64,000 nt of DNA, taken from Candidatus Micrarchaeota archaeon. GTDB taxonomy: Archaea; Micrarchaeota; Micrarchaeia; Micrarchaeales; CABMGC01. Made by a program: the position numbers and the translations under genes. Each line of letters starts with the position of its first letter. Positions within the stretch are counted from its first letter, which is position 1. The stretch spans positions 157,381-221,380 of the forward strand of contig JAKASP010000001.1 of assembly GCA_021818995.1 (NCBI GenBank), given 5' to 3'. The notes under the pieces were generated by a model that was not told where the DNA came from, made no database searches, and saw only the letters and a program-made list of their open reading frames with translations. Below, one piece after another: positions 8,065-50,559 of the stretch.

Positions 8065-8152
8065 CCTTCTGCTTCTTCTCCCGATTATAAATATCTTGCG
8101 TACGGGCGCGCCTGCCTGACAATCCTATTAATTGCATTTGCGATATGCTAGC

Positions 8153-8986
8153 ATGCTGAGGATCGGCTACCATGTCTCGATAAGCGGGAGCATGGACCTT
8201 GCCCTCGACCGGGCGCGAGAGATAGGGTGTACGTGCGTGCAGGTCTTTCCGAGCAATCCGCGCAGTTGGAGCGCGAGGGAGATGCAGGAAGGCGAGGCTG
8301 AAAGGTTCAGGGCTAAGCAGAAGGCGTATAACATAAGCCCTGTCTTCGTGCACATGCCGTACCTACCGAACCTCGCATCGCCCAAGGAAGACGTTTACAG
8401 GAAATCGATCGCGGCTATGATCGAAGCGCTGGAGAGGTGCAACGCGCTCGGCGCCAAATATCTGATAGTGCATCTCGGCAGCCACCTGGGATCAGGGGTC
8501 GAGGCCGGGAGGGAGCGCGTCTCTGCCGCGATAAACGAGGTCGAGAAGCACATGGGCAACGCGACGATACTCCTTGAGAACGAGGCTGGACAGAGGAACA
8601 GCGTTGGCTCAAAGCTGGACGAGCTGACCGACATATACAACAGGATAGAGCACAAGCATGTGGGCTTCTGCCTCGACACCTGCCACGTCTTCGCGGCAGG
8701 ATACGACATAAGGAAGGAGGAGGTGGCCAGGGAGGTGGTCGAGACTCTGGGCATAGACCGGATAGGCTGCATACACCTCAATGACGCAAAGCATCCACTG
8801 GGCTCTGGGCTGGACAGGCACGCTGACATAGGCTTCGGCCGTATAGGCAAGAAGGGCTTCGAGGAATTCTTCTCGCTGCCTGGGCTGAGGGAGAAGCCGA
8901 TGATACTCGAGACTCCGCTTGTGGAGACGCCGAAGGACGCTGCAGGCGAGCTCTCGATGGTGAGGAAGATGCTGAACTACGCCTAG
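8153..8986 (+). CDS. nfo: endonuclease IV (AP endonuclease)
   Basis: MLRIGYHVSISG...VFVHMPYLPNLASP...YLIVHLGSH...ILLENEAG...GFCLDTCHVFAAGYD...IHLNDAK...GSGLDRHADIG match the Nfo TIM-barrel metal-ligand motifs. The ORF-track start at 8132 is TTG, so the ATG at 8153 is preferred. Confidence 0.9.
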   Translation: MLRIGYHVSISGSMDLALDRAREIGCTCVQVFPSNPRSWSAREMQEGEAERFRAKQKAYNISPVFVHMPYLPNLASPKEDVYRKSIAAMIEALERCNALGAKYLIVHLGSHLGSGVEAGRERVSAAINEVEKHMGNATILLENEAGQRNSVGSKLDELTDIYNRIEHKHVGFCLDTCHVFAAGYDIRKEEVAREVVETLGIDRIGCIHLNDAKHPLGSGLDRHADIGFGRIGKKGFEEFFSLPGLREKPMILETPLVETPKDAAGELSMVRKMLNYA

Positions 8987-9633
8987 AGCGTGTCGCAGCC
9001 GAGGGCCAGTCTGCCGCCGAGGCCGTTTGGCATCATTGCGAAGTAGAACGTCTGCTCGAATCCTGTCCTGGGCGCGCTCCTCATCTGCATCGTGGTCATG
9101 CTTGCTATGAAGATGTACTGCACCTTCTCTGTTCCTGCCTTGGTCTCTGAGCTGAGCGCCAATTCCATGTTCCTGGCCAGGGTGTCGGTGATGTCCTTTG
9201 CGGAGTTCAGCGCCTGCTCGGAGCGAAGGCCGCGGCCAAGCATGCGGAGCTCGTCGCGCTCCAGTCCCATGCTCCCCTCGCATTCGCACTTCTCGAGCCT
9301 AAGCTCATAGTCGTGCATGAAGTTGACCATCGTCGCCTCGGTCTGCATCCTTATCCTGTTGCCGCTTACCCCGAAGTAGCTGACCTTCACACGGATCTGG
9401 TCAGGCCTCATTATCTCCGTGTTCGCAAGCACGAATGCGCCTATGTTTAGGCCGTGCATCTTCAGCTCGTCCTTTGTGTAGATGAGCGCCGGGGTCGTCT
9501 CCTTCCTCTGCGCCTCTATCAATTCCATCAGGTCGCTCCGCGCGAGGTAGCGCTCCCTGCGCACCGCGTCAGTGAGCAGTATGCTGCCTCCGCTTGGCAT
9601 CGAGAGGTCCTTTGTCAGCTCATTTCCCTTCAT
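8983..9633 (-). CDS. hypothetical protein, paralog of 9642-10313
   Basis: 216-aa ORF, 8 nt downstream of its paralog. Shared pieces include L-L-T-D-A-V-R-R versus I-M-S-D-A-A-R-K near the N-terminus, IRVKVSYF versus IEVKAAYD, and YIFIASM versus YLFVFKK. No family recognised. Confidence 0.55.
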   Translation of the reverse strand: MKGNELTKDLSMPSGGSILLTDAVRRERYLARSDLMELIEAQRKETTPALIYTKDELKMHGLNIGAFVLANTEIMRPDQIRVKVSYFGVSGNRIRMQTEATMVNFMHDYELRLEKCECEGSMGLERDELRMLGRGLRSEQALNSAKDITDTLARNMELALSSETKAGTEKVQYIFIASMTTMQMRSAPRTGFEQTFYFAMMPNGLGGRLALGCDTL

Positions 9634-9641
9634 AAGAACAC

Positions 9642-10313
9642 TCAGCTGCGGAGCACGCCCAGCTCCCCGCGTTGCGGCTTCTGCTTCTTGAAGACGAAGA
9701 GGTACTCCTGCCTGCCGGCCTCGTTCTCATTCTCCGATTCCGATGCCAAGGCGTAACCGTAGAGCTCCCTTCCTATGCCCCTCGCTACTGTCTTTGCCAT
9801 CAGCTCCACTGGATCTTCGCTGGAATCGAGCATCGTGCTGGAAAGCTCCGTCTTGTCCACCACTGTAGTCGGCAGGTATGTGGTACTGTCGAGCTCTTGG
9901 TGGGTGTCGACGAATACTGCCTCGACCCACAGGTCCTCGATCTTGACCGTGCAGTTCTTCTCGTTGCTGACCATCATGGGAGAGAAGCTCATGCACATTC
10001 CTGTCTGCACGGTTCTGCCATCGCCGTTGTGCGGGTCGGAAGGGTCGTACGCTGCCTTGACCTCTATGCTGTCGGCATCCATGACATAAGCTATGTGCCT
10101 CGCTATCGCGGCCCCTATCGCCCTCCCCTGCTCCCTGAGCCTGTCCTGGGTCGTGACCTCCTGCGGCACATTGGCCCCTGCGGTAAGCAGAGCCGAGTAC
10201 ATGCGCCCTAGCTCCTTATCACTCACCTTGAAGAAGTCCTTGCGCGCTGCGTCGCTCATTATTATTGGCAGCATAGCCCTGCCGTTCGCGCGCCTGAGGC
10301 TCTCCCCGGCCAT
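9642..10313 (-). CDS. hypothetical protein, paralog of 8983-9633
   Basis: 223-aa ORF with protein-like composition. The antisense and overlapping ORFs (9672-10211 and others) are Arg/Leu/His-biased. No family recognised. Confidence 0.55.
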   Translation of the reverse strand: MAGESLRRANGRAMLPIIMSDAARKDFFKVSDKELGRMYSALLTAGANVPQEVTTQDRLREQGRAIGAAIARHIAYVMDADSIEVKAAYDPSDPHNGDGRTVQTGMCMSFSPMMVSNEKNCTVKIEDLWVEAVFVDTHQELDSTTYLPTTVVDKTELSSTMLDSSEDPVELMAKTVARGIGRELYGYALASESENENEAGRQEYLFVFKKQKPQRGELGVLRS

Positions 10314-10417
10314 CTAAGCATCTGAAAAAGCTTGGGCGATAGCATTTAAATAAATTGGTTTTAGCTAAGTTGCTCGGTGCCAGCGGGTACCCTTGCCTTA
10401 TGAGAAGTCGGATTCCT

Positions 10418-11071
10418 TCAGTTCCACCAGTTCTCGTCAAAGATGGGAACGTCGAGTGGCAGCGTCTTCGCCTCGTCGCCCTTGAGCTTTCCGTTCCACG
10501 CGACGGCCCTGTTGCCCATCATCTGGTATATGGGCCCTGAATAGTCGAGCGTGGTCTTGAGCGTGTAGCCTATCGTTGCGTAGGTTATGCCAGTAGTGTG
10601 AAGCACGTCCACGAGCAGAAGCGGTGCTTGCGCATTCCTCTCCAGCACGCGTATGTGCTCGCTCATGGCGAAAATCTTCTCGGTCATGCTAGTTCGGTCT
10701 GAGAAGTGCCGGCGCGCGTGCAGTCCAGAGGAGTAGCCTATCAGAACGTTGCGCTTCGCGATGCCCGCAGCCTCAAGTGGCGGCAGTATCCATCTCTGGT
10801 TGTATGCGCCGGTCATCACAATGGCGACAGTCATGTCCTGCGGCAGTTCCCTGTGGTTGAGCGGCTTCGGTACGAAAGGCTCGGTCAAGTCCTGCATCAC
10901 CAGCGCCGTATCCATGCTCTTCCTGAATGCGGCTTTGATTGCATTGCGCGACTCGCGTGATGTTTCAGGGTCGAAGAGCGTGACCCACGCCGATACTTCG
11001 TTGTCAAGCTGGCCGTTGCTGTATAGGCCAGGCGTGTGGCCTTTCCGTGTGTTGGCTTCAGAGTGTAGCAT
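10418..11071 (-). CDS. hypothetical protein with a phosphoribosyltransferase-like loop
   Basis: 217 aa. The segment APLLLVDVLHTTGITYATI resembles the PRPP-binding loop of type I PRTases (hydrophobic x4-D-D-x-x-x-T-G-x-T), but with only one Asp. This is weak, motif-level evidence. Confidence 0.45.
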   Translation of the reverse strand: MLHSEANTRKGHTPGLYSNGQLDNEVSAWVTLFDPETSRESRNAIKAAFRKSMDTALVMQDLTEPFVPKPLNHRELPQDMTVAIVMTGAYNQRWILPPLEAAGIAKRNVLIGYSSGLHARRHFSDRTSMTEKIFAMSEHIRVLERNAQAPLLLVDVLHTTGITYATIGYTLKTTLDYSGPIYQMMGNRAVAWNGKLKGDEAKTLPLDVPIFDENWWN

Positions 11072-11085
11072 AGGATCGACTTTGT

Positions 11086-11553
11086 TCAGCCCCAGACGCA
11101 GACTCGCTTACCGCTCCTTTTGAGAACGCGCAGCGATTCGTTATCGCGCTCGTAGCCGTTAGCAGACACAACCTTGTCAAACGCCCCGTCCACGAACGGC
11201 AGGCGCCTGTTGTCCGCCACTATGAAGTTTGGTTTTGGCTTGCTCTCACGGCGCAGCACTCCTGAGAGCCGCTTGTTCGACTTTATCAGGTGCCTCTGCC
11301 AGTCGACCAGGACGAGGTCTCCCTGGTTGTAGAGCCTGTGGAACGGGAATGCGCCTGCGCCGAGCTCGAGCGTCAGGTCCCTGCTGGACGGCTTGGCCTC
11401 GTCCCTTATCTTGATGTATGCTGATACCCTGTCTACGAGTATGGGAGGCAGGACTACTGAGAGGAGCGGCCATACGGCCCCGTGGAAGAGCTTTGATGGC
11501 CTATCGTGGACCCTGTTGTCCACTACCCTGCACTCCAGCGCCAGTTCTGACAT
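11086..11553 (-). CDS. minimal class I SAM-dependent methyltransferase-like protein
   Basis: 155 aa. LELGAGAFPF is motif I-like, LVLVD resembles the acidic end of beta-2, and IVADNRRLPFVDGAFDKVVS plus LRVLKRSGKRV resemble the typical Methyltransf_11-like core. It lies 14 nt upstream of the PRTase-like gene. Confidence 0.5.
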   Translation of the reverse strand: MSELALECRVVDNRVHDRPSKLFHGAVWPLLSVVLPPILVDRVSAYIKIRDEAKPSSRDLTLELGAGAFPFHRLYNQGDLVLVDWQRHLIKSNKRLSGVLRRESKPKPNFIVADNRRLPFVDGAFDKVVSANGYERDNESLRVLKRSGKRVCVWG

Positions 11554-11609
11554 AATTCTGTGATTCTTTTCCGGCTTATTTAAGCGTTGACGTTATCGTT
11601 CGTTAGGTA

Positions 11610-12365
11610 TCAAGGATTGTACGATGAGTAGCGCTCCCGCTTTTCCCTCTCCTCGTTGGCGATGTCCCTGCGCTCCTTATCTTCAGCTGTGCGATCGCTT
11701 GCGACACCCATAGCAAACGATATTGCTGCAGTTCTCTGGTCCTCTTTCTCTTTCTCCTTCTGTTGGCGCCGTCTGTCTTTCTCAGCTTCGAGCTCTCTTC
11801 TGGCTTCAAGTATTTTGGATAGCTCTTCTGAGTTTCTTTTTTCTACAAGCTTAACCTCGCGGTCCAGTATCTCGAGCATCTTGTCTTGATCAATTCCAGG
11901 CCTGTCAATGAAGGCGAACCTGGCTTTGAGTATAGTGCGGATCTCAATTGCGTGAAGCCAGAGATAACCTTCGTTGTAACCGAAGTCTTTAGCATGATAG
12001 TGTGGTTCTGCCGCGAGTGCAAATTCTTTTGATTCTACGGCACCAGCTGAAACTATCAGCCGTTGTTCCAACGGCAGTTCGTTAAATGCAGGTTCATACG
12101 CTTTTTTTGCAGCCAGAGTTATTTTTACCTCAGTACTTTCCCCCGAGTCCGTTCTGTCTATTCTATAGAAGCCGTTAGCCGACGGTATGGATGAATCCCT
12201 AGATACCCATATGGATTGGTCTTTAAGCATTTTGAACTCTTCGGGTCTACGCAACCAGCCGACTAGCTCGGGGAGTGTTATCAGAGATGCGTTGCTCTCT
12301 CTTAGCACCGCTTCTAGCGAAGAGAACGGGATTGGAAGTTTGGATACTTTTACGACCATAGACAT
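11610..12365 (-). CDS. hypothetical protein, short member of a tandem paralog pair with a charged tail ending YNP
   Basis: 251 aa. The N-terminal roughly 170 aa align clearly with residues 128 onward of the upstream gene (KLPIPFSSLEAVLRESNASLITLPELVGWLR / RVPIPFSSVESVLRAGSASLITLPELLNWLR). The C-terminal E/R/K-rich tail ends ...YSSYNP. Confidence 0.6.
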   Translation of the reverse strand: MSMVVKVSKLPIPFSSLEAVLRESNASLITLPELVGWLRRPEEFKMLKDQSIWVSRDSSIPSANGFYRIDRTDSGESTEVKITLAAKKAYEPAFNELPLEQRLIVSAGAVESKEFALAAEPHYHAKDFGYNEGYLWLHAIEIRTILKARFAFIDRPGIDQDKMLEILDREVKLVEKRNSEELSKILEARRELEAEKDRRRQQKEKEKEDQRTAAISFAMGVASDRTAEDKERRDIANEEREKRERYSSYNP

Positions 12366-12428
12366 GCCTTCTTCTGATCATCTTCAATTTTTGTTCATTA
12401 AAGCGTTGGTGTGATAGCGCGTCAGACA

Positions 12429-13547
12429 TTATGGGTTGTACGGCGGGTGGTAGTACTCGTCGATCTCTCGCTTTTGTCTCTCTTCCTTTGCGGTCTCCCT
12501 GCGCGCCCAGTCATCGTTGAACCTGTCTGCAATAATTTCGCGATCTCGCTGTCTTGCCGCGTCTTCCGCTCTTCTTTCATACGCCTCCCTGCGACTCTCG
12601 CGCTCTTCAGCTTTGCGAGTTTCCTCCTCTTCTGAAAGTGTAACCTCTCGTTCTAGCACCCTGAGCATCCTATCCTGAGCGGGGCCGGGCTTGTCAACAA
12701 AGGCAAATTTGGCTTTGCCATATACTTCTGTTCCGAGCGAGAAATACCCATGAGGGATTAAGTTTTTCCTGAAGATGCCTATGTTTCTAAGGGAATAGTT
12801 TGGCTTAAGCGAGAGCGGAAATTCTTTGGAAGAGTTAACGATTTTCAGAACCTCCAATCGCTGCTCTAAGGGCAGGCGGAGGAATCCGTTCTGGTAGCTC
12901 TTGTCTGAAATCTTTGTTATGCGCACTTCAGGAATCTCCTCTGTGTCTATCCTGTCTATTCTGAAGAAACCAGGAACCGAAGGTATTGATGAGTCCCTGG
13001 CCACCCATATGGCCTGATCGTTGAGAGCTTCAAGATCTTGGGAGCTGCGCAGCCAGTTTAGCAGCTCGGGAAGCGTTATAAGAGACGCACTTCCCGCTCT
13101 CAGTACGGACTCAACAGAAGAGAATGGAATCGGGACCCTTGATAGCGTTATGGTTTTTGTTTGCATACGCGCTTCGCCTTCCCTATTTGAGCCACGGAGG
13201 TATGGTGCCGAGGCGCCTGCCGGTAGGCCTTGTGTAACATCAATCTCCTTGTGCTGCACATCCACGGCTATAGCAGTGGATCTTATCAGCCGGTTCAAAG
13301 CGCTTAACTGGTCTTGAAGTCCGTCTATTACCGAGTCCGTTTTCAATATGCCCTGCTTCTTCGCGATTGCTGCGGCTTTGAAGATGGTAGTTGTTTCGTC
13401 GTTGATTTCCCGTATAGATTCGTTGATGTGTTGCGTGTATTTCGATCTTTGCGAGCTCTTGAGCGCTTCCAGTCGTTTTATGTTTGCAGAGGTTCTTTCT
13501 CTAAGACACGATGTGAGCTCTGCTTCGCTGAAACCACCTAGCATCAC
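12429..13547 (-). CDS. hypothetical protein, long member of the tandem paralog pair
   Basis: 372 aa. It has an extra roughly 125-aa helical N-terminal extension, then the shared domain, then an E/R/K-rich tail ending ...YHPPYNP. The DNA is visibly more AT-rich than its neighbours. Confidence 0.6.
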   Translation of the reverse strand: MMLGGFSEAELTSCLRERTSANIKRLEALKSSQRSKYTQHINESIREINDETTTIFKAAAIAKKQGILKTDSVIDGLQDQLSALNRLIRSTAIAVDVQHKEIDVTQGLPAGASAPYLRGSNREGEARMQTKTITLSRVPIPFSSVESVLRAGSASLITLPELLNWLRSSQDLEALNDQAIWVARDSSIPSVPGFFRIDRIDTEEIPEVRITKISDKSYQNGFLRLPLEQRLEVLKIVNSSKEFPLSLKPNYSLRNIGIFRKNLIPHGYFSLGTEVYGKAKFAFVDKPGPAQDRMLRVLEREVTLSEEEETRKAEERESRREAYERRAEDAARQRDREIIADRFNDDWARRETAKEERQKREIDEYYHPPYNP

Positions 13548-13647
13548 CTTCTTCAGGAATGCGGTTCTGTCTTCTCTGGAAAGCTCTTTTTCAGGAACAT
13601 TCTCACCTATCGTGCTTGGTTTTGTCTGTTTTTAAGGATTGGTGTTA

Positions 13648-14622
13648 TCAGCTGGTTTCGGAGGCGGTGTTGTTCACGTGCGTGAGCACAGGCACCGAGC
13701 TCATGTTGTAGTACACCTGTATGTGCGCTGTCTGCAGCGGAGTCGCCTGGCTGCCCGGATGGTATGCGACCCAGAGTATGCCGTTGAAGGGGGCCGATGC
13801 GCTGCTTACGCCGAAGCACGGCAGGTCCTTGGCGCTTATGGGCGACGATGCGGTTATGGAAGTGCCATATTGCCCCTGACTGAAGGTGCCGTTCGCCTGC
13901 AGGTAGTAGAACTGGCTCTTCGGCGGCGCTGCGAGGCTGAAGGTGTTCGTGCACGCCAGGTCGAGGTTGTAGAGCGTGTCGTTGGTGTCGTTAGATGAGA
14001 GCGTGAAGGAGAGGTTCGCCGGGGCTGAGAGCACGGGATTCTGGCACTGGAACGGCTGGTCGAGCTCTATGGTTGAGCAGCCCGAGTAAGTCAGTATCGT
14101 AGTTGTGAGAGTGCTGGTGGTGACGGTCGTGGCTATTGTGCTCGTGGTGTTGAGTGATGTGGTTGTCGTGCTCGCCGGCGCTATCTGCGCCCCGCCATTT
14201 ATCCCGAAGAATACCAGCGCACTGACTATCGCTATTATCGCTATCGCGAGCAGGTAGACGTTCTGCTCGATTCTGCGCCTCTGGCCCCTCTTCATGTTGA
14301 AGATTATGTACAGGGTGAGGAGCGCGAAGATCAGGTTGAAGGTGAGCTCCGCGATGCTGATGGTTCCGGTGAACACGAAGATCACGGAGAGGATTGCGTA
14401 GCCGGCCGCGAATGCGAGCTGCTCGTCGACAAGCGGGGCCACAAGGCCCACGACCACTATCACGAGCGCGAGGCTTGACAGCGAGGCTATTCCGGTGAGA
14501 GCGATGATGCCCGTTCCCTGGAGCAGTTCGATCAGCTGGCTGATGAATGCGATGAACAGGCCGGCGGCGAACTCCTTGTAGCTCTCCTGCATTCCGTGCT
14601 TCATCCTGCTTGGTGCCTTCAT
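13648..14622 (-). CDS. polytopic membrane protein with a Thr-rich linker and an extracellular sequon-rich domain
   Basis: 324 aa with about five N-terminal hydrophobic helices. A linker ASTTTTSLNTTSTIATTVTTSTLTTT follows, and then a Cys-containing domain with many N-x-S/T sequons. Confidence 0.6.
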   Translation of the reverse strand: MKAPSRMKHGMQESYKEFAAGLFIAFISQLIELLQGTGIIALTGIASLSSLALVIVVVGLVAPLVDEQLAFAAGYAILSVIFVFTGTISIAELTFNLIFALLTLYIIFNMKRGQRRRIEQNVYLLAIAIIAIVSALVFFGINGGAQIAPASTTTTSLNTTSTIATTVTTSTLTTTILTYSGCSTIELDQPFQCQNPVLSAPANLSFTLSSNDTNDTLYNLDLACTNTFSLAAPPKSQFYYLQANGTFSQGQYGTSITASSPISAKDLPCFGVSSASAPFNGILWVAYHPGSQATPLQTAHIQVYYNMSSVPVLTHVNNTASETS

Positions 14623-14650
14623 GTAATGCGTCGCCTGTTACGGTGTTTGT

Positions 14651-16180
14651 ATGATGTGTGCTAATAAAAAGGTTATAGTATTGGGAAAAGTCCATCGAGA
14701 GTTGCGCCTCGCTAGGCGCTTTGGTCTTTTGAGATGGCACTGGAAGAGGAAGTGGCTCTTCAATATGATGAGGTTAAATCCGGAAAGGAACCTGAACTCG
14801 CACATAATGATAACTGGCGAGAGCGGCGCTGGTAAGAGCAACGTCTGCAAGCTCATACTGCGGCAGCTGGCCAATCAGGGAGCGGGCTTCGTTGTGCTGG
14901 ACCCCCATGCTGAATACGTGGAGCACGCGAAGGAGATGCATGCTGAGGTCTACGACGCGAGCATGCACTCTGTGAACCTCTTTGACCTAGACGGCTTGAC
15001 AGAAAGGGAGAGGACGGCAGAGATAACTGCGATGCTGCGAAGGGTGCTGCACCTGGGCGAGGTGCAGGCGAGCACGCTCTACAGGTGCATAGACTACACC
15101 TACTGGGTTAGCATGAGGAATGGTTCAGTTCCGAACATGCACAGCCTGCTCTACACGATAAAGGTCTTCGGGCGCAAAGCCAGGAGCAAGCCAGAGGCGA
15201 ATATGCTTGACTCGCTCGAGAAACGCCTGCTGGTCATAGCAGGAGAAAACTTCGCAAGGAACGTGAGCGTAGCCAAGATCCTGCAGGGCAGGAGCATCTT
15301 CTCCCTGCACGGGCTACACAGCGCGGAGGCGCAGAGCATATACATGGAGGGCATGCTCAGGAAGATCTACACCAGCGTGCTTGCGGCCAGGGTGAAGCGC
15401 AGGTTCTATATCGTCATAGACGAGGCGGAGAAGCTGCAGGGCAGCCCTGTGGTTGGAAGGTTCGTAGCGGAGGGAAGGAAGTACGGCATAGGGATGATCG
15501 CGATCTCGCAGCGCGCAAAGGCGCTGGACAAGGAGATACGCAGCAACGCTGCTACGATGATTACATTTACGCAGCGTGAACCGGAGGAGCAGAACTACGT
15601 GGCGAACATGATAGCAGCAGGTACGGAGTACAATAGGTTCATCGAAGTGAGGAAGGCGCTGAGGGAACTGCCGAGAGGGTACGCGCTCGTGCAGGAAGCG
15701 AGGGAGAGGAACGCGAAGATGGTGAAGTGCCTGAGGTTCAAGGCCAGGGAGAGGGACCCGAGCGGCGCGATAATGGTGATGGCGAGGAAGGTCGTGGGCA
15801 AGCGGGAGCTACTTGAAAAACTCAGGCATGATGGCTTCTCCGCAGAACAGGCGATTGGAGCGATCACGGAGCTTGTGAGGTCCGGAAAGCTGAAGTACCA
15901 CGTTGTGACCGAGGCGCCGTATGCAGGAACCTGGTACATCGCAATGCCGAGGAACAGCGCAGAGCACGACGTAATGGTGAGCCTGATAAGCAGGTACCTG
16001 AGCGAGAACGGGATTGCGAATAGGATACACAACAACTCCTACGGCCCTGATGTGATCGCATACAAAGATGGCAGGAAGGTTGCGGTCGAGTACGAGACCG
16101 GAAAGAAAAATACCTGGGACACGGAGCGCATGCTTGCGAAGAGGGTAGAAAAATATCCTGAGGTGATTGTTCTGCGTTGA
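14651..16180 (+). CDS. HerA/FtsK-superfamily P-loop ATPase (DUF87/AAA_10-like) fused to a C-terminal wHTH and a PD-(D/E)xK-like module
   Basis: Walker A is ITGESGAGKSN, Walker B is FYIVIDEAEKL, and GIGMIAISQR...ATMITF is also present. The last roughly 120 aa are ...AIGAITELVRSGKLKYHVV...SAEHDVMVSLISRYLSENG...GPDVIAYKDGRKVAVEYETGKK. The true start may be ATG 14765, because a TATA-like aaaaaggttatagtatt sits at about 14664-14680. Confidence 0.75.
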   Translation: MMCANKKVIVLGKVHRELRLARRFGLLRWHWKRKWLFNMMRLNPERNLNSHIMITGESGAGKSNVCKLILRQLANQGAGFVVLDPHAEYVEHAKEMHAEVYDASMHSVNLFDLDGLTERERTAEITAMLRRVLHLGEVQASTLYRCIDYTYWVSMRNGSVPNMHSLLYTIKVFGRKARSKPEANMLDSLEKRLLVIAGENFARNVSVAKILQGRSIFSLHGLHSAEAQSIYMEGMLRKIYTSVLAARVKRRFYIVIDEAEKLQGSPVVGRFVAEGRKYGIGMIAISQRAKALDKEIRSNAATMITFTQREPEEQNYVANMIAAGTEYNRFIEVRKALRELPRGYALVQEARERNAKMVKCLRFKARERDPSGAIMVMARKVVGKRELLEKLRHDGFSAEQAIGAITELVRSGKLKYHVVTEAPYAGTWYIAMPRNSAEHDVMVSLISRYLSENGIANRIHNNSYGPDVIAYKDGRKVAVEYETGKKNTWDTERMLAKRVEKYPEVIVLR

Positions 16181-50484: not shown

Positions 50485-50559
50485 GGGCTCGTAGCTCAGC
50501 TTGGTTAGAGCGGCGGTCTTATAAGCCGTAGGTCCTGAGTTCAAATCTCAGCGGGCCCA
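50485..50559 (+). tRNA. tRNA-Ile (anticodon TAT)
   Basis: Acceptor GGGCTCG/CGGGCCC, D-arm GCTC-AGCTTGGTTA-GAGC, anticodon stem GCGGT/GCCGT with loop CTTATAA, T-arm CTGAG-TTCAAAT-CTCAG. Confidence 0.85.

Follow-up and report, generated by a model that had tools for sequence, protein, structure and literature searches.

A divergent tandem pair of orphan genes of foreign base composition in a micrarchaeal genome, encoding proteins with charged, helix-prone tails and Tyr-Asn-Pro ends

In the tiny genomes of the DPANN archaea, no function can be assigned to a large proportion of the genes, and the mobile elements and host interactions of these archaea are little known. For the architecture that is dealt with in this study, the closest described systems are found elsewhere. 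FtsZ, bacterial SSB, and the ribosomal stalk proteins each use a C-terminal peptide as the docking site for their partners. Single alpha-helix (SAH) segments, the so-called ER/K domains, act as linkers between functional parts in both prokaryotic and eukaryotic proteins (PMC5378345, PMC4183817), and in the designed and classical SAHs nearly every residue is A, E, K, or R (PMC5347031). In the present study we analyzed a 64,000-nt stretch of DNA from a Candidatus Micrarchaeota archaeon (assembly GCA_021818995.1, contig JAKASP010000001.1, positions 157,381 to 221,380; hereafter, the window), in which two adjacent open reading frames (ORFs) had been proposed, from the DNA letters and their translations, to be tandem paralogs of an unrecognized family (hereafter, the original prediction). 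The two genes have a base composition foreign to the genome and no detectable homolog in public data, and the proteins they would encode appear to combine a conserved domain with a charged, helix-prone tail and a short C-terminal peptide ending in Tyr-Asn-Pro.

The two ORFs were found on the minus strand exactly where the original prediction had placed them (Table 1), and BLASTP aligned the short copy with the long copy at 42% identity across 251 columns (E = 3e-60), in agreement with their proposed tandem paralogy. The identity rises to 48-50% in a shared domain of about 170 aa, whose alignment contains the runs PIPFSS, ASLITLPEL, WLR, RDSSIPS, F.RIDR, LPLEQRL, and A[RK]FAF.D[RK]PG; all of these runs had been read correctly at the outset except the last, which had been given as AKFAF.D.PG. 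The helical N-terminal extension of about 125 aa ascribed to the longer copy was also recovered: it comprises 127 aa, and AlphaFold models three helices in it, at residues 7-31, 37-63, and 70-94, with predicted local distance difference test (pLDDT) scores of 55-73.

Over the 175 aligned codons of the shared domain, the nonsynonymous divergence (dN) is 0.43 and the synonymous divergence (dS) is about 2.5, a saturated value, which gives a dN/dS of about 0.17, and the nucleotide identity at codon positions 1, 2, and 3 is 62%, 70%, and 42%, respectively. These two properties show that both copies have long been kept as coding sequence. As for the N-terminal extension of the long copy, shuffling that DNA 20,000 times left an equally long frame open in only 28 cases, and the first codon position of the extension is purine-rich (0.67). 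A TATA-like box precedes each of the two genes, and comparable A/T-rich boxes occur at -28 to -41 of many first-in-operon genes in the window. That no homolog turned up in our searches might suggest that the pair is non-functional DNA in which ORFs are spurious or decaying, but such an explanation is exceedingly unlikely in view of the two long intact frames, the low dN/dS over the aligned codons, the drop in identity at the third position from the 62-70% of positions 1 and 2, the promoter-like boxes, and the improbability of a chance open extension. The decay that might have been expected of spurious genes, and that the original prediction itself had brought up as an objection, was thus not what we found, and the pair is, as judged from its sequences, made up of two real protein-coding genes, i.e., divergent tandem paralogs under purifying selection.

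The search for relatives covered protein families, structures, and metagenomes. No Pfam family matched the whole domain or its halves even at E <= 10, apart from noise at E = 0.19-0.24; NCBIfam, PHROGs, and PADLOC gave no match to the pair at E <= 0.1; and both sequence (phmmer) and profile searches of PDB were empty. When 1.84 billion representative proteins were searched exhaustively with an HMMER profile, nothing came back but the two query proteins and P0003, a 795-aa protein that was rejected as a homolog because its score is the sum over eight repeats containing ITTPELVDNLR, a chance resemblance. Word-index searches for homologs, whether started from the domain or from the full long copy, gave back the query alone, and the N-terminal extension gave no homolog in the searches run. 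The pair was likewise unmatched when GTDB genomes, JGI metagenomes, and IMG/VR were scanned by pattern and by tblastn with automatically chosen peptides, and when phage and plasmid records were searched by tblastn. The sole other copy of the pair is on a 100% identical contig from run SRR13205814. The claim that the family is an unrecognized one therefore stands after sensitive profile searches, in which no characterized family was found to match the shared domain. As far as public data go, which amounts to about 15 billion proteins, the pair has no detectable homolog and is unique to one population.

One coincidence met in these scans could mislead motif-based searches. With a hand-made DNA pattern for the decapeptide IWV.RDSSIP, we obtained 90 metagenome stretches and 4 viral contigs, which are chance matches and for the most part arabinofuranosidase-like genes, and several of the best-scoring ones carry "GIWVGRDSSIPN..G.R.DVV...VPNVRWPGGCFADEYHW" (contigs with the GIWVGRDSSIPN coincidence: L092, L103, L128, L150, and L163), a motif that we take to be that of GH51 arabinofuranosidases. 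Kinship with GH51 alpha-L-arabinofuranosidases was rejected because the alignments stop at the seeded decapeptide and because no Pfam glycosidase family matched; the resemblance is confined to the decapeptide shared with such arabinofuranosidase-like glycosidases.

Among the genes of the window are those for MCM, family-B DNA polymerase, split RNA polymerase B subunits, SRP54, DnaK, and ribonucleotide reductase, and because its MCM is 90% identical to that of the Micrarchaeota metagenome-assembled genome YP1.bin77 and 87% identical to that of REEA67, the host is a DPANN archaeon belonging to Micrarchaeota. The pair lies in an interval between an endonuclease-IV-like gene (8132-8986) and the gene of a HerA/FtsK-type ATPase (14651-16180). 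For comparison, the MCM loci of relatives were taken with 10 kb of upstream sequence and hence span the syntenic region. In REEA67 (locus L003) and FK1.bin85 (L004), both flanking genes are kept 1.6-1.7 kb apart and enclose different genes, namely three small ORFs (243, 189, and 90 aa) in the former and a CTP synthase gene in the latter. Neither paralog was found in 80 related Micrarchaeota loci by tblastn or by a profile hidden Markov model run over all six-frame segments, and the same searches failed to find the neighboring genes 10418-11071 and 11086-11553 in those loci. Since the content of the interval differs among relatives and the 80 loci lack the pair, the interval is considered variable and the pair specific to one population. 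All genes of the interval form singleton clusters in a 15-billion-protein collection.

The base composition of the pair is foreign to the genome. The GC contents of the short and long genes are 0.475 and 0.498, compared with a window mean of 0.550, and their GC contents at third codon positions (GC3) are 0.48 and 0.53, compared with a window mean of 0.70 (standard deviation 0.09) and with 0.74-0.83 in the adjacent genes. The greater AT-richness that had been noticed by eye is therefore real and is confined to a sharply bounded trough (Table 1). High expression was rejected as the cause of the low GC3, since GC3 is high (0.71-0.81) in the core genes of the window (RNA polymerase, MCM, PolB, ribonucleotide reductase, SRP54, and DnaK) and none of its remaining low-GC3 ORFs is a core gene. 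The original prediction had seen in the composition a hint of acquisition, with which both the AT-rich composition and the lack of the pair in related Micrarchaeota are consistent. The pair appears to have been acquired horizontally, with a donor that was AT-richer and has not been sampled, e.g., a virus, a plasmid, or another archaeon, and both genes would have entered together, already diverged from each other. The duplication probably predates the arrival, because the synonymous divergence is saturated and yet both copies still lie about 0.2 below the GC3 of the host; judging from these values, the genes would have been duplicated long before they came to reside in this genome.

Alternatively, the two might be native, fast-evolving Micrarchaeota genes, with the low GC3 reflecting a local mutational or expression peculiarity and with counterparts that were lost, or diverged beyond recognition, in the relatives. 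DPANN genomes are mosaic and hold many lineage-specific genes, the neighboring genes in 8983-11553 are likewise singletons or nearly so, and no integrase or att-like repeat flanking the pair was found, all of which would suit such an origin. It is nevertheless unlikely, because the equally lineage-specific neighbors have native GC3 values of 0.74-0.83, while the pair sits in its sharply bounded trough, and because a protein identity of 48% at saturated dS indicates a slowly evolving domain, the orthologs of which should be detectable in relatives whose MCMs are 87-90% identical; none was found.

The marks of an integrated mobile element or provirus were looked for and not found. Family scans detected no integrase or other hallmark domain in 8983-16180, no flanking direct repeats longer than 20 nt surround the pair, and no tRNA lies closer than about 9.4 kb. 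The foreign composition stays. A related explanation is that the pair is the remnant of a virus or provirus and encodes paired structural proteins, like the two paralogous capsid proteins whose genes are neighbors in some archaeal viruses, or else other virion proteins or anti-host proteins. Such a remnant could account for the foreign composition and for the tandem, divergent, and apparently co-inherited nature of the pair, and the FtsK/HerA-type ATPase encoded about 1 kb away matches the PHROG "terminase large subunit" family (2.4e-19). That ATPase is, however, a conserved chromosomal gene, being 65-75% identical in three relatives that lack the pair (L003, L004, and L008) and having a GC3 of 0.74, and its 509-aa product has a nuclease-like C-terminal part. 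As the pair is also unmatched in PHROGs, IMG/VR, and phage records, and as the interval contains no further viral hallmark gene, we regard a viral remnant as very unlikely.

With regard to the function of the shared domain, structure prediction gave little guidance. AlphaFold, supplied with two-sequence alignments, modeled the domain alone at pLDDT 34 and within the full-length protein at less than 45, with a full-length overall value of 47; the domain was not folded because only two sequences were available. A Foldseek search of PDB with the low-confidence domain model gave only noise, with template modeling scores of 0.33 or lower. A PD-(D/E)xK nuclease, which was considered from E18...D70...E79-V-K81 of the short copy, was rejected because the K is replaced with R in the long copy, the spacing is unfit, and no nuclease profile scored. 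Another possibility is that the two proteins bind nucleic acids through a winged-helix-like structure formed by the first 70 or so residues of the domain, and that they are regulators or chromatin or partition-type proteins derived from a mobile element. Archaeal mobile elements often carry small DNA-binding proteins, and the order of elements in the low-confidence models (helices 145-150, 158-164, and 168-174, followed by strands 178-182 and 193-200) could be read as helix, short strand, helix, helix, and the beta hairpin IWV.RD...GF.RIDR. The models from which that order was taken are, however, below 45 in pLDDT, no helix-turn-helix or winged-helix Pfam model matched the sub-domain alone at E <= 10, the supposed recognition helix is acidic and shows little conservation from one copy to the other, and the isoelectric point of the short copy's domain is about 5.3, all of which makes nucleic-acid binding of this kind quite unlikely.

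The tails had been described as polyampholyte low-complexity tails, and the charged and near-neutral part of that description holds: the 83-residue tail of the short copy and the 73-residue tail of the long copy have charged fractions of 0.54 and 0.56, respectively, with a net charge per residue near zero. They are better called helix-prone tails with a conserved hydrophobic patch. In both, a hydrophobic patch (AAISFAMGVA in the short copy and EIIADRFNDDW in the long one) is located at mid-tail, and a conserved A.EER.KRE stands just before the tyrosines; because these two elements are kept in otherwise diverged tails, the tails are more than low-complexity filler. In the AlphaFold model of the long copy, the tail is a single helix (288-365, pLDDT 64-87) that leaves the final six residues free. 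The fraction of E, R, and K in the tails (67-83 residues) is 0.52. Opposite-charge pairs at i/i+3,i+4 number 31 in the short tail, compared with 23.7+-3.8 in shuffled sequences (z of about 1.9), and 31 in the long tail, compared with 21.9+-3.6 (z of about 2.5). Three-residue charge networks, defined as i,i+3/4,i+6/7/8 (PMC5378345), number 15 in the short tail versus 14.0+-5.2 expected (p = 0.43) and 23 in the long tail versus 13.6+-5.1 (p = 0.053). Hydrophobic seams, defined as hydrophobic residues at i,i+3/4,i+7, are zero in both tails, which argues against a coiled coil. Taken from these models and counts, the tail would resemble a single alpha-helix without clearly qualifying as one.

The proteins end in RYSSYNP (short) and YYHPPYNP (long), in line with the proposed Y-x(2-3)-Y-N-P terminus, and no YNP end exists elsewhere among 5,292 ORFs in 1.4 Mb of Micrarchaeota DNA. 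Several known terminal motifs were compared and rejected. For a PIP box (Q-x-x-[ILM]-x-x-[FYW]-[FYW]), the hydrophobic residue of QKREIDEYY in the long copy is one position off, and EKRERYSSY in the short copy has no such residue. The HbYX proteasome-docking motif, which places a hydrophobic residue, Tyr, and any residue at the last three positions, does not agree with termini of S-Y-N-P and P-Y-N-P, in which Tyr is antepenultimate and Asn is penultimate. A PGF-CTERM/archaeosortase-type sorting signal, which pairs an N-terminal signal peptide with a hydrophobic helix and a basic end at the C-terminus, was dismissed because the termini are polar and no hydrophobic segment exists.

Taken together, these findings lead us to propose that the locus holds an acquired, already-diverged pair of genes encoding cytoplasmic proteins that consist of a head, a spacer, and a peptide. 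Transmembrane or signal-like hydrophobic stretches are absent from both proteins (the maximum 19-residue Kyte-Doolittle means are 1.17 and 0.99), and because neither a signal peptide nor a transmembrane segment was recognized, both would be soluble and cytoplasmic. In the head, about 170 aa would make up a compact alpha/beta domain that performs a specific job. The spacer would be a charged helix of 65-80 residues, which lacks a coiled-coil seam, is semi-rigid, and would span about 10 nm if fully helical, and the C-terminal end, A.EER.KRE...Y-x2-3-Y-N-P, might dock on a partner. In the long copy, the three-helix N-terminal extension might add a second surface for interaction or oligomerization. 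Because the two genes travel together, the two proteins probably work as a pair. We consider this composite picture possible, at somewhat less than an even chance; most of that weight lies on the origin and the architecture, and little of it on the docking.

Several points weigh against the proposal. The domain models, at pLDDT 34 and below 45, make the Foldseek search meaningless. The integrase, flanking direct repeats, and adjacent tRNA that might have marked a route of transfer are all missing, and something other than transfer could, in principle, have lowered the GC3. The criteria for a single alpha-helix agree with the tails only in part, given an E+R+K fraction of 0.52 and charge networks at p = 0.43 in the short copy and 0.053 in the long. 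In addition, the conservation of YNP comes from two homologous sequences and could be due to shared ancestry alone.

A bolder version of the proposal invokes a two-protein module of a Micrarchaeota virus or plasmid not yet known, of which the pair would be the single trace sampled, with a head of new fold and a rigid charged helix that presents a hitherto undescribed Tyr-x-x-Tyr-Asn-Pro docking peptide to a machine of the host. If so, such a module might redirect host replication, division, or proteolysis, but we think it rather improbable that the pair is of that nature.

Table 1. Positions in the window of the paralogous genes, their parts, and associated features
Feature	Positions	Strand	Remarks
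Short paralog	11610-12365	minus	251 aa from ATG; database copy P0001 is 249 aa
Shared globular domain, short paralog (aa 1-168)	11862-12365	minus	from paralog alignment, dN/dS, and AlphaFold (pLDDT 34)
Charged helix-prone tail, short paralog (aa 169-245)	11631-11861	minus	central hydrophobic patch AAISFAMGVA
C-terminal peptide YSSYNP, short paralog	11613-11630	minus	read from sequence
TATA-like box TTTAATGA	12395-12402	minus	37 nt before the ATG of the short paralog
Long paralog	12429-13547	minus	372 aa from GTG 13547; 371 aa from ATG 13544, which equals P0002
N-terminal extension, long paralog (aa 1-127)	13167-13547	minus	three predicted helices
Shared globular domain, long paralog (aa 128-299)	12651-13166	minus	from paralog alignment, dN/dS, and AlphaFold
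Charged helical tail, long paralog (aa 300-365)	12453-12650	minus	hydrophobic patch EIIADRFNDDW
C-terminal peptide YHPPYNP, long paralog	12432-12452	minus	read from sequence
TATA-like box TTAAAAAC	13628-13635	minus	upstream of the long paralog
GC/GC3 trough	~11550-13650		coincides exactly with the two genes, sharply bounded

Downstream of the TATA-like box TTAAAAAC, a 15-codon upstream ORF, MFLKKSFPEKTEPHS, is present at 13553-13600 on the minus strand. It begins 35 nt after the box and ends 5 nt before the GTG of the long paralog in a different frame. It could encode a leader peptide with translational coupling, or else the promoter assignment could be wrong.

Genes 8983-9633 and 9642-10313, both on the minus strand, constitute a second, weaker tandem pair of paralogs with 27% identity over 73 aa (E = 5e-5), and have native GC3 and no family assignment. 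Distant syntenic relatives of them exist in REEA67 (L003 503-1234 and 1185-1754), where the 243-aa and 189-aa ORFs mentioned above are related to 9642-10313 and 8983-9633, respectively. The idea that the pair of the present study is a diverged branch of this adjacent 216/223-aa family, based on a likeness around "...YxFxFV...", was discarded because hhalign gave a probability of 0.2% (E = 0.26) and BLASTP was empty. Gene 10418-11071 (minus strand) encodes a 217-aa protein in which we read a phosphoribosyltransferase-like stretch, LLLVDVLHTTG; its single homolog among 5.8 billion clustered proteins (47% identity, L176 369-1037) belongs to a different metagenome-assembled genome, where it adjoins a Fic-domain gene. 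Guilt by association through 10418-11071 was of no use, since that lone homolog is in an unrelated context without a gene like either paralog. The 155-aa product of 11086-11553 has a weak likeness to class I methyltransferases, below Pfam thresholds.

On the other side of the pair, gene 13648-14622 (minus strand), a singleton cluster, encodes a multi-pass membrane protein of 324 aa, probably a surface glycoprotein, whose linker is Thr-rich and whose C-terminal part abounds in N-x-S/T sequons. The 90-aa ORF of REEA67 is possibly weak kin of it, maybe of its N-terminal part (E = 0.036). The 509-aa ATPase encoded at 14651-16180 (plus strand) also matches mad8 of PADLOC (3.6e-25) and CedD of NCBIfam (2.3e-19) and bears, at its C-terminus, a faint likeness to AHJR-like nucleases; its conservation in the relatives makes its gene a core gene of this clade.

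Farther away in the window, proline dehydrogenase and MCM genes are adjacent, while in the closest relative, YP1.bin77, about 7.3 kb of extra genes lie between them (L002 2700-10000). From the translations, we read this insert as encoding an Lrp-like regulator, a transporter, a nucleotidyltransferase, a 631-aa protein, a Nudix hydrolase, and an isopentenyl diphosphate isomerase. The genomes of this clade are strongly mosaic. Two tRNA genes are also worth recording. One, at 50485-50559 (plus strand), is a tRNA-Ile with the anticodon TAT (UAU). In most archaea, AUA is decoded by a CAU tRNA that carries an agmatidine modification, and reports of UAU-Ile tRNAs come from a few reduced lineages; the gene would fit a DPANN genome without the modification enzyme. 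The other, at 2082-2203 (plus strand), is a 122-nt tRNA detected by Rfam (55 bits) and missed by ARAGORN, which adjoins tRNA-His (1953-2025) and is presumably an intron-bearing archaeal tRNA.

The original prediction was borne out on each point that could be checked. What the present analysis provides is a well-documented orphan family, to which nothing known is related at the family level, and not a new mechanism. Orphan genes like these are common in DPANN genomes, and both the design, with its head, charged helix, and C-terminal peptide, and the acquired orphan islet are of familiar kinds. Because both proteins are small and predicted to be soluble, the pair offers a well-defined and inexpensive subject for structure determination and pull-downs, and such structural or interaction work might reveal a partner machine or a lineage of mobile elements.

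In comparison with the known systems, the tails share with SAH (ER/K) domains an E/R/K-rich stretch of 65-80 residues, an enrichment of opposite charges at i/i+3,i+4, the lack of a seam, and a single AlphaFold helix. They differ from those domains in that the E+R+K fraction of 0.52 is below that of designed and classical SAHs, in that the charge networks of the short copy are not significant, and in that the helix is broken by the conserved hydrophobic patch. The pair is like FtsZ, bacterial SSB, and the ribosomal stalk proteins in that a folded domain is followed by a long low-complexity spacer and then by a short conserved C-terminal peptide, but no sequence similarity exists between them, the spacer of the pair is helix-prone whereas theirs are disordered, and Y-x2-3-Y-N-P matches none of the docking peptides compared. 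As for the ORFan genes that populate the variable islets of DPANN genomes, the pair resembles them in being restricted to a single population, in occupying an interval that differs between close relatives, and in having singleton neighbors. Unlike those neighbors, it is a compositional outlier, and it is further set apart by its ancient duplication and its clear signs of purifying selection.

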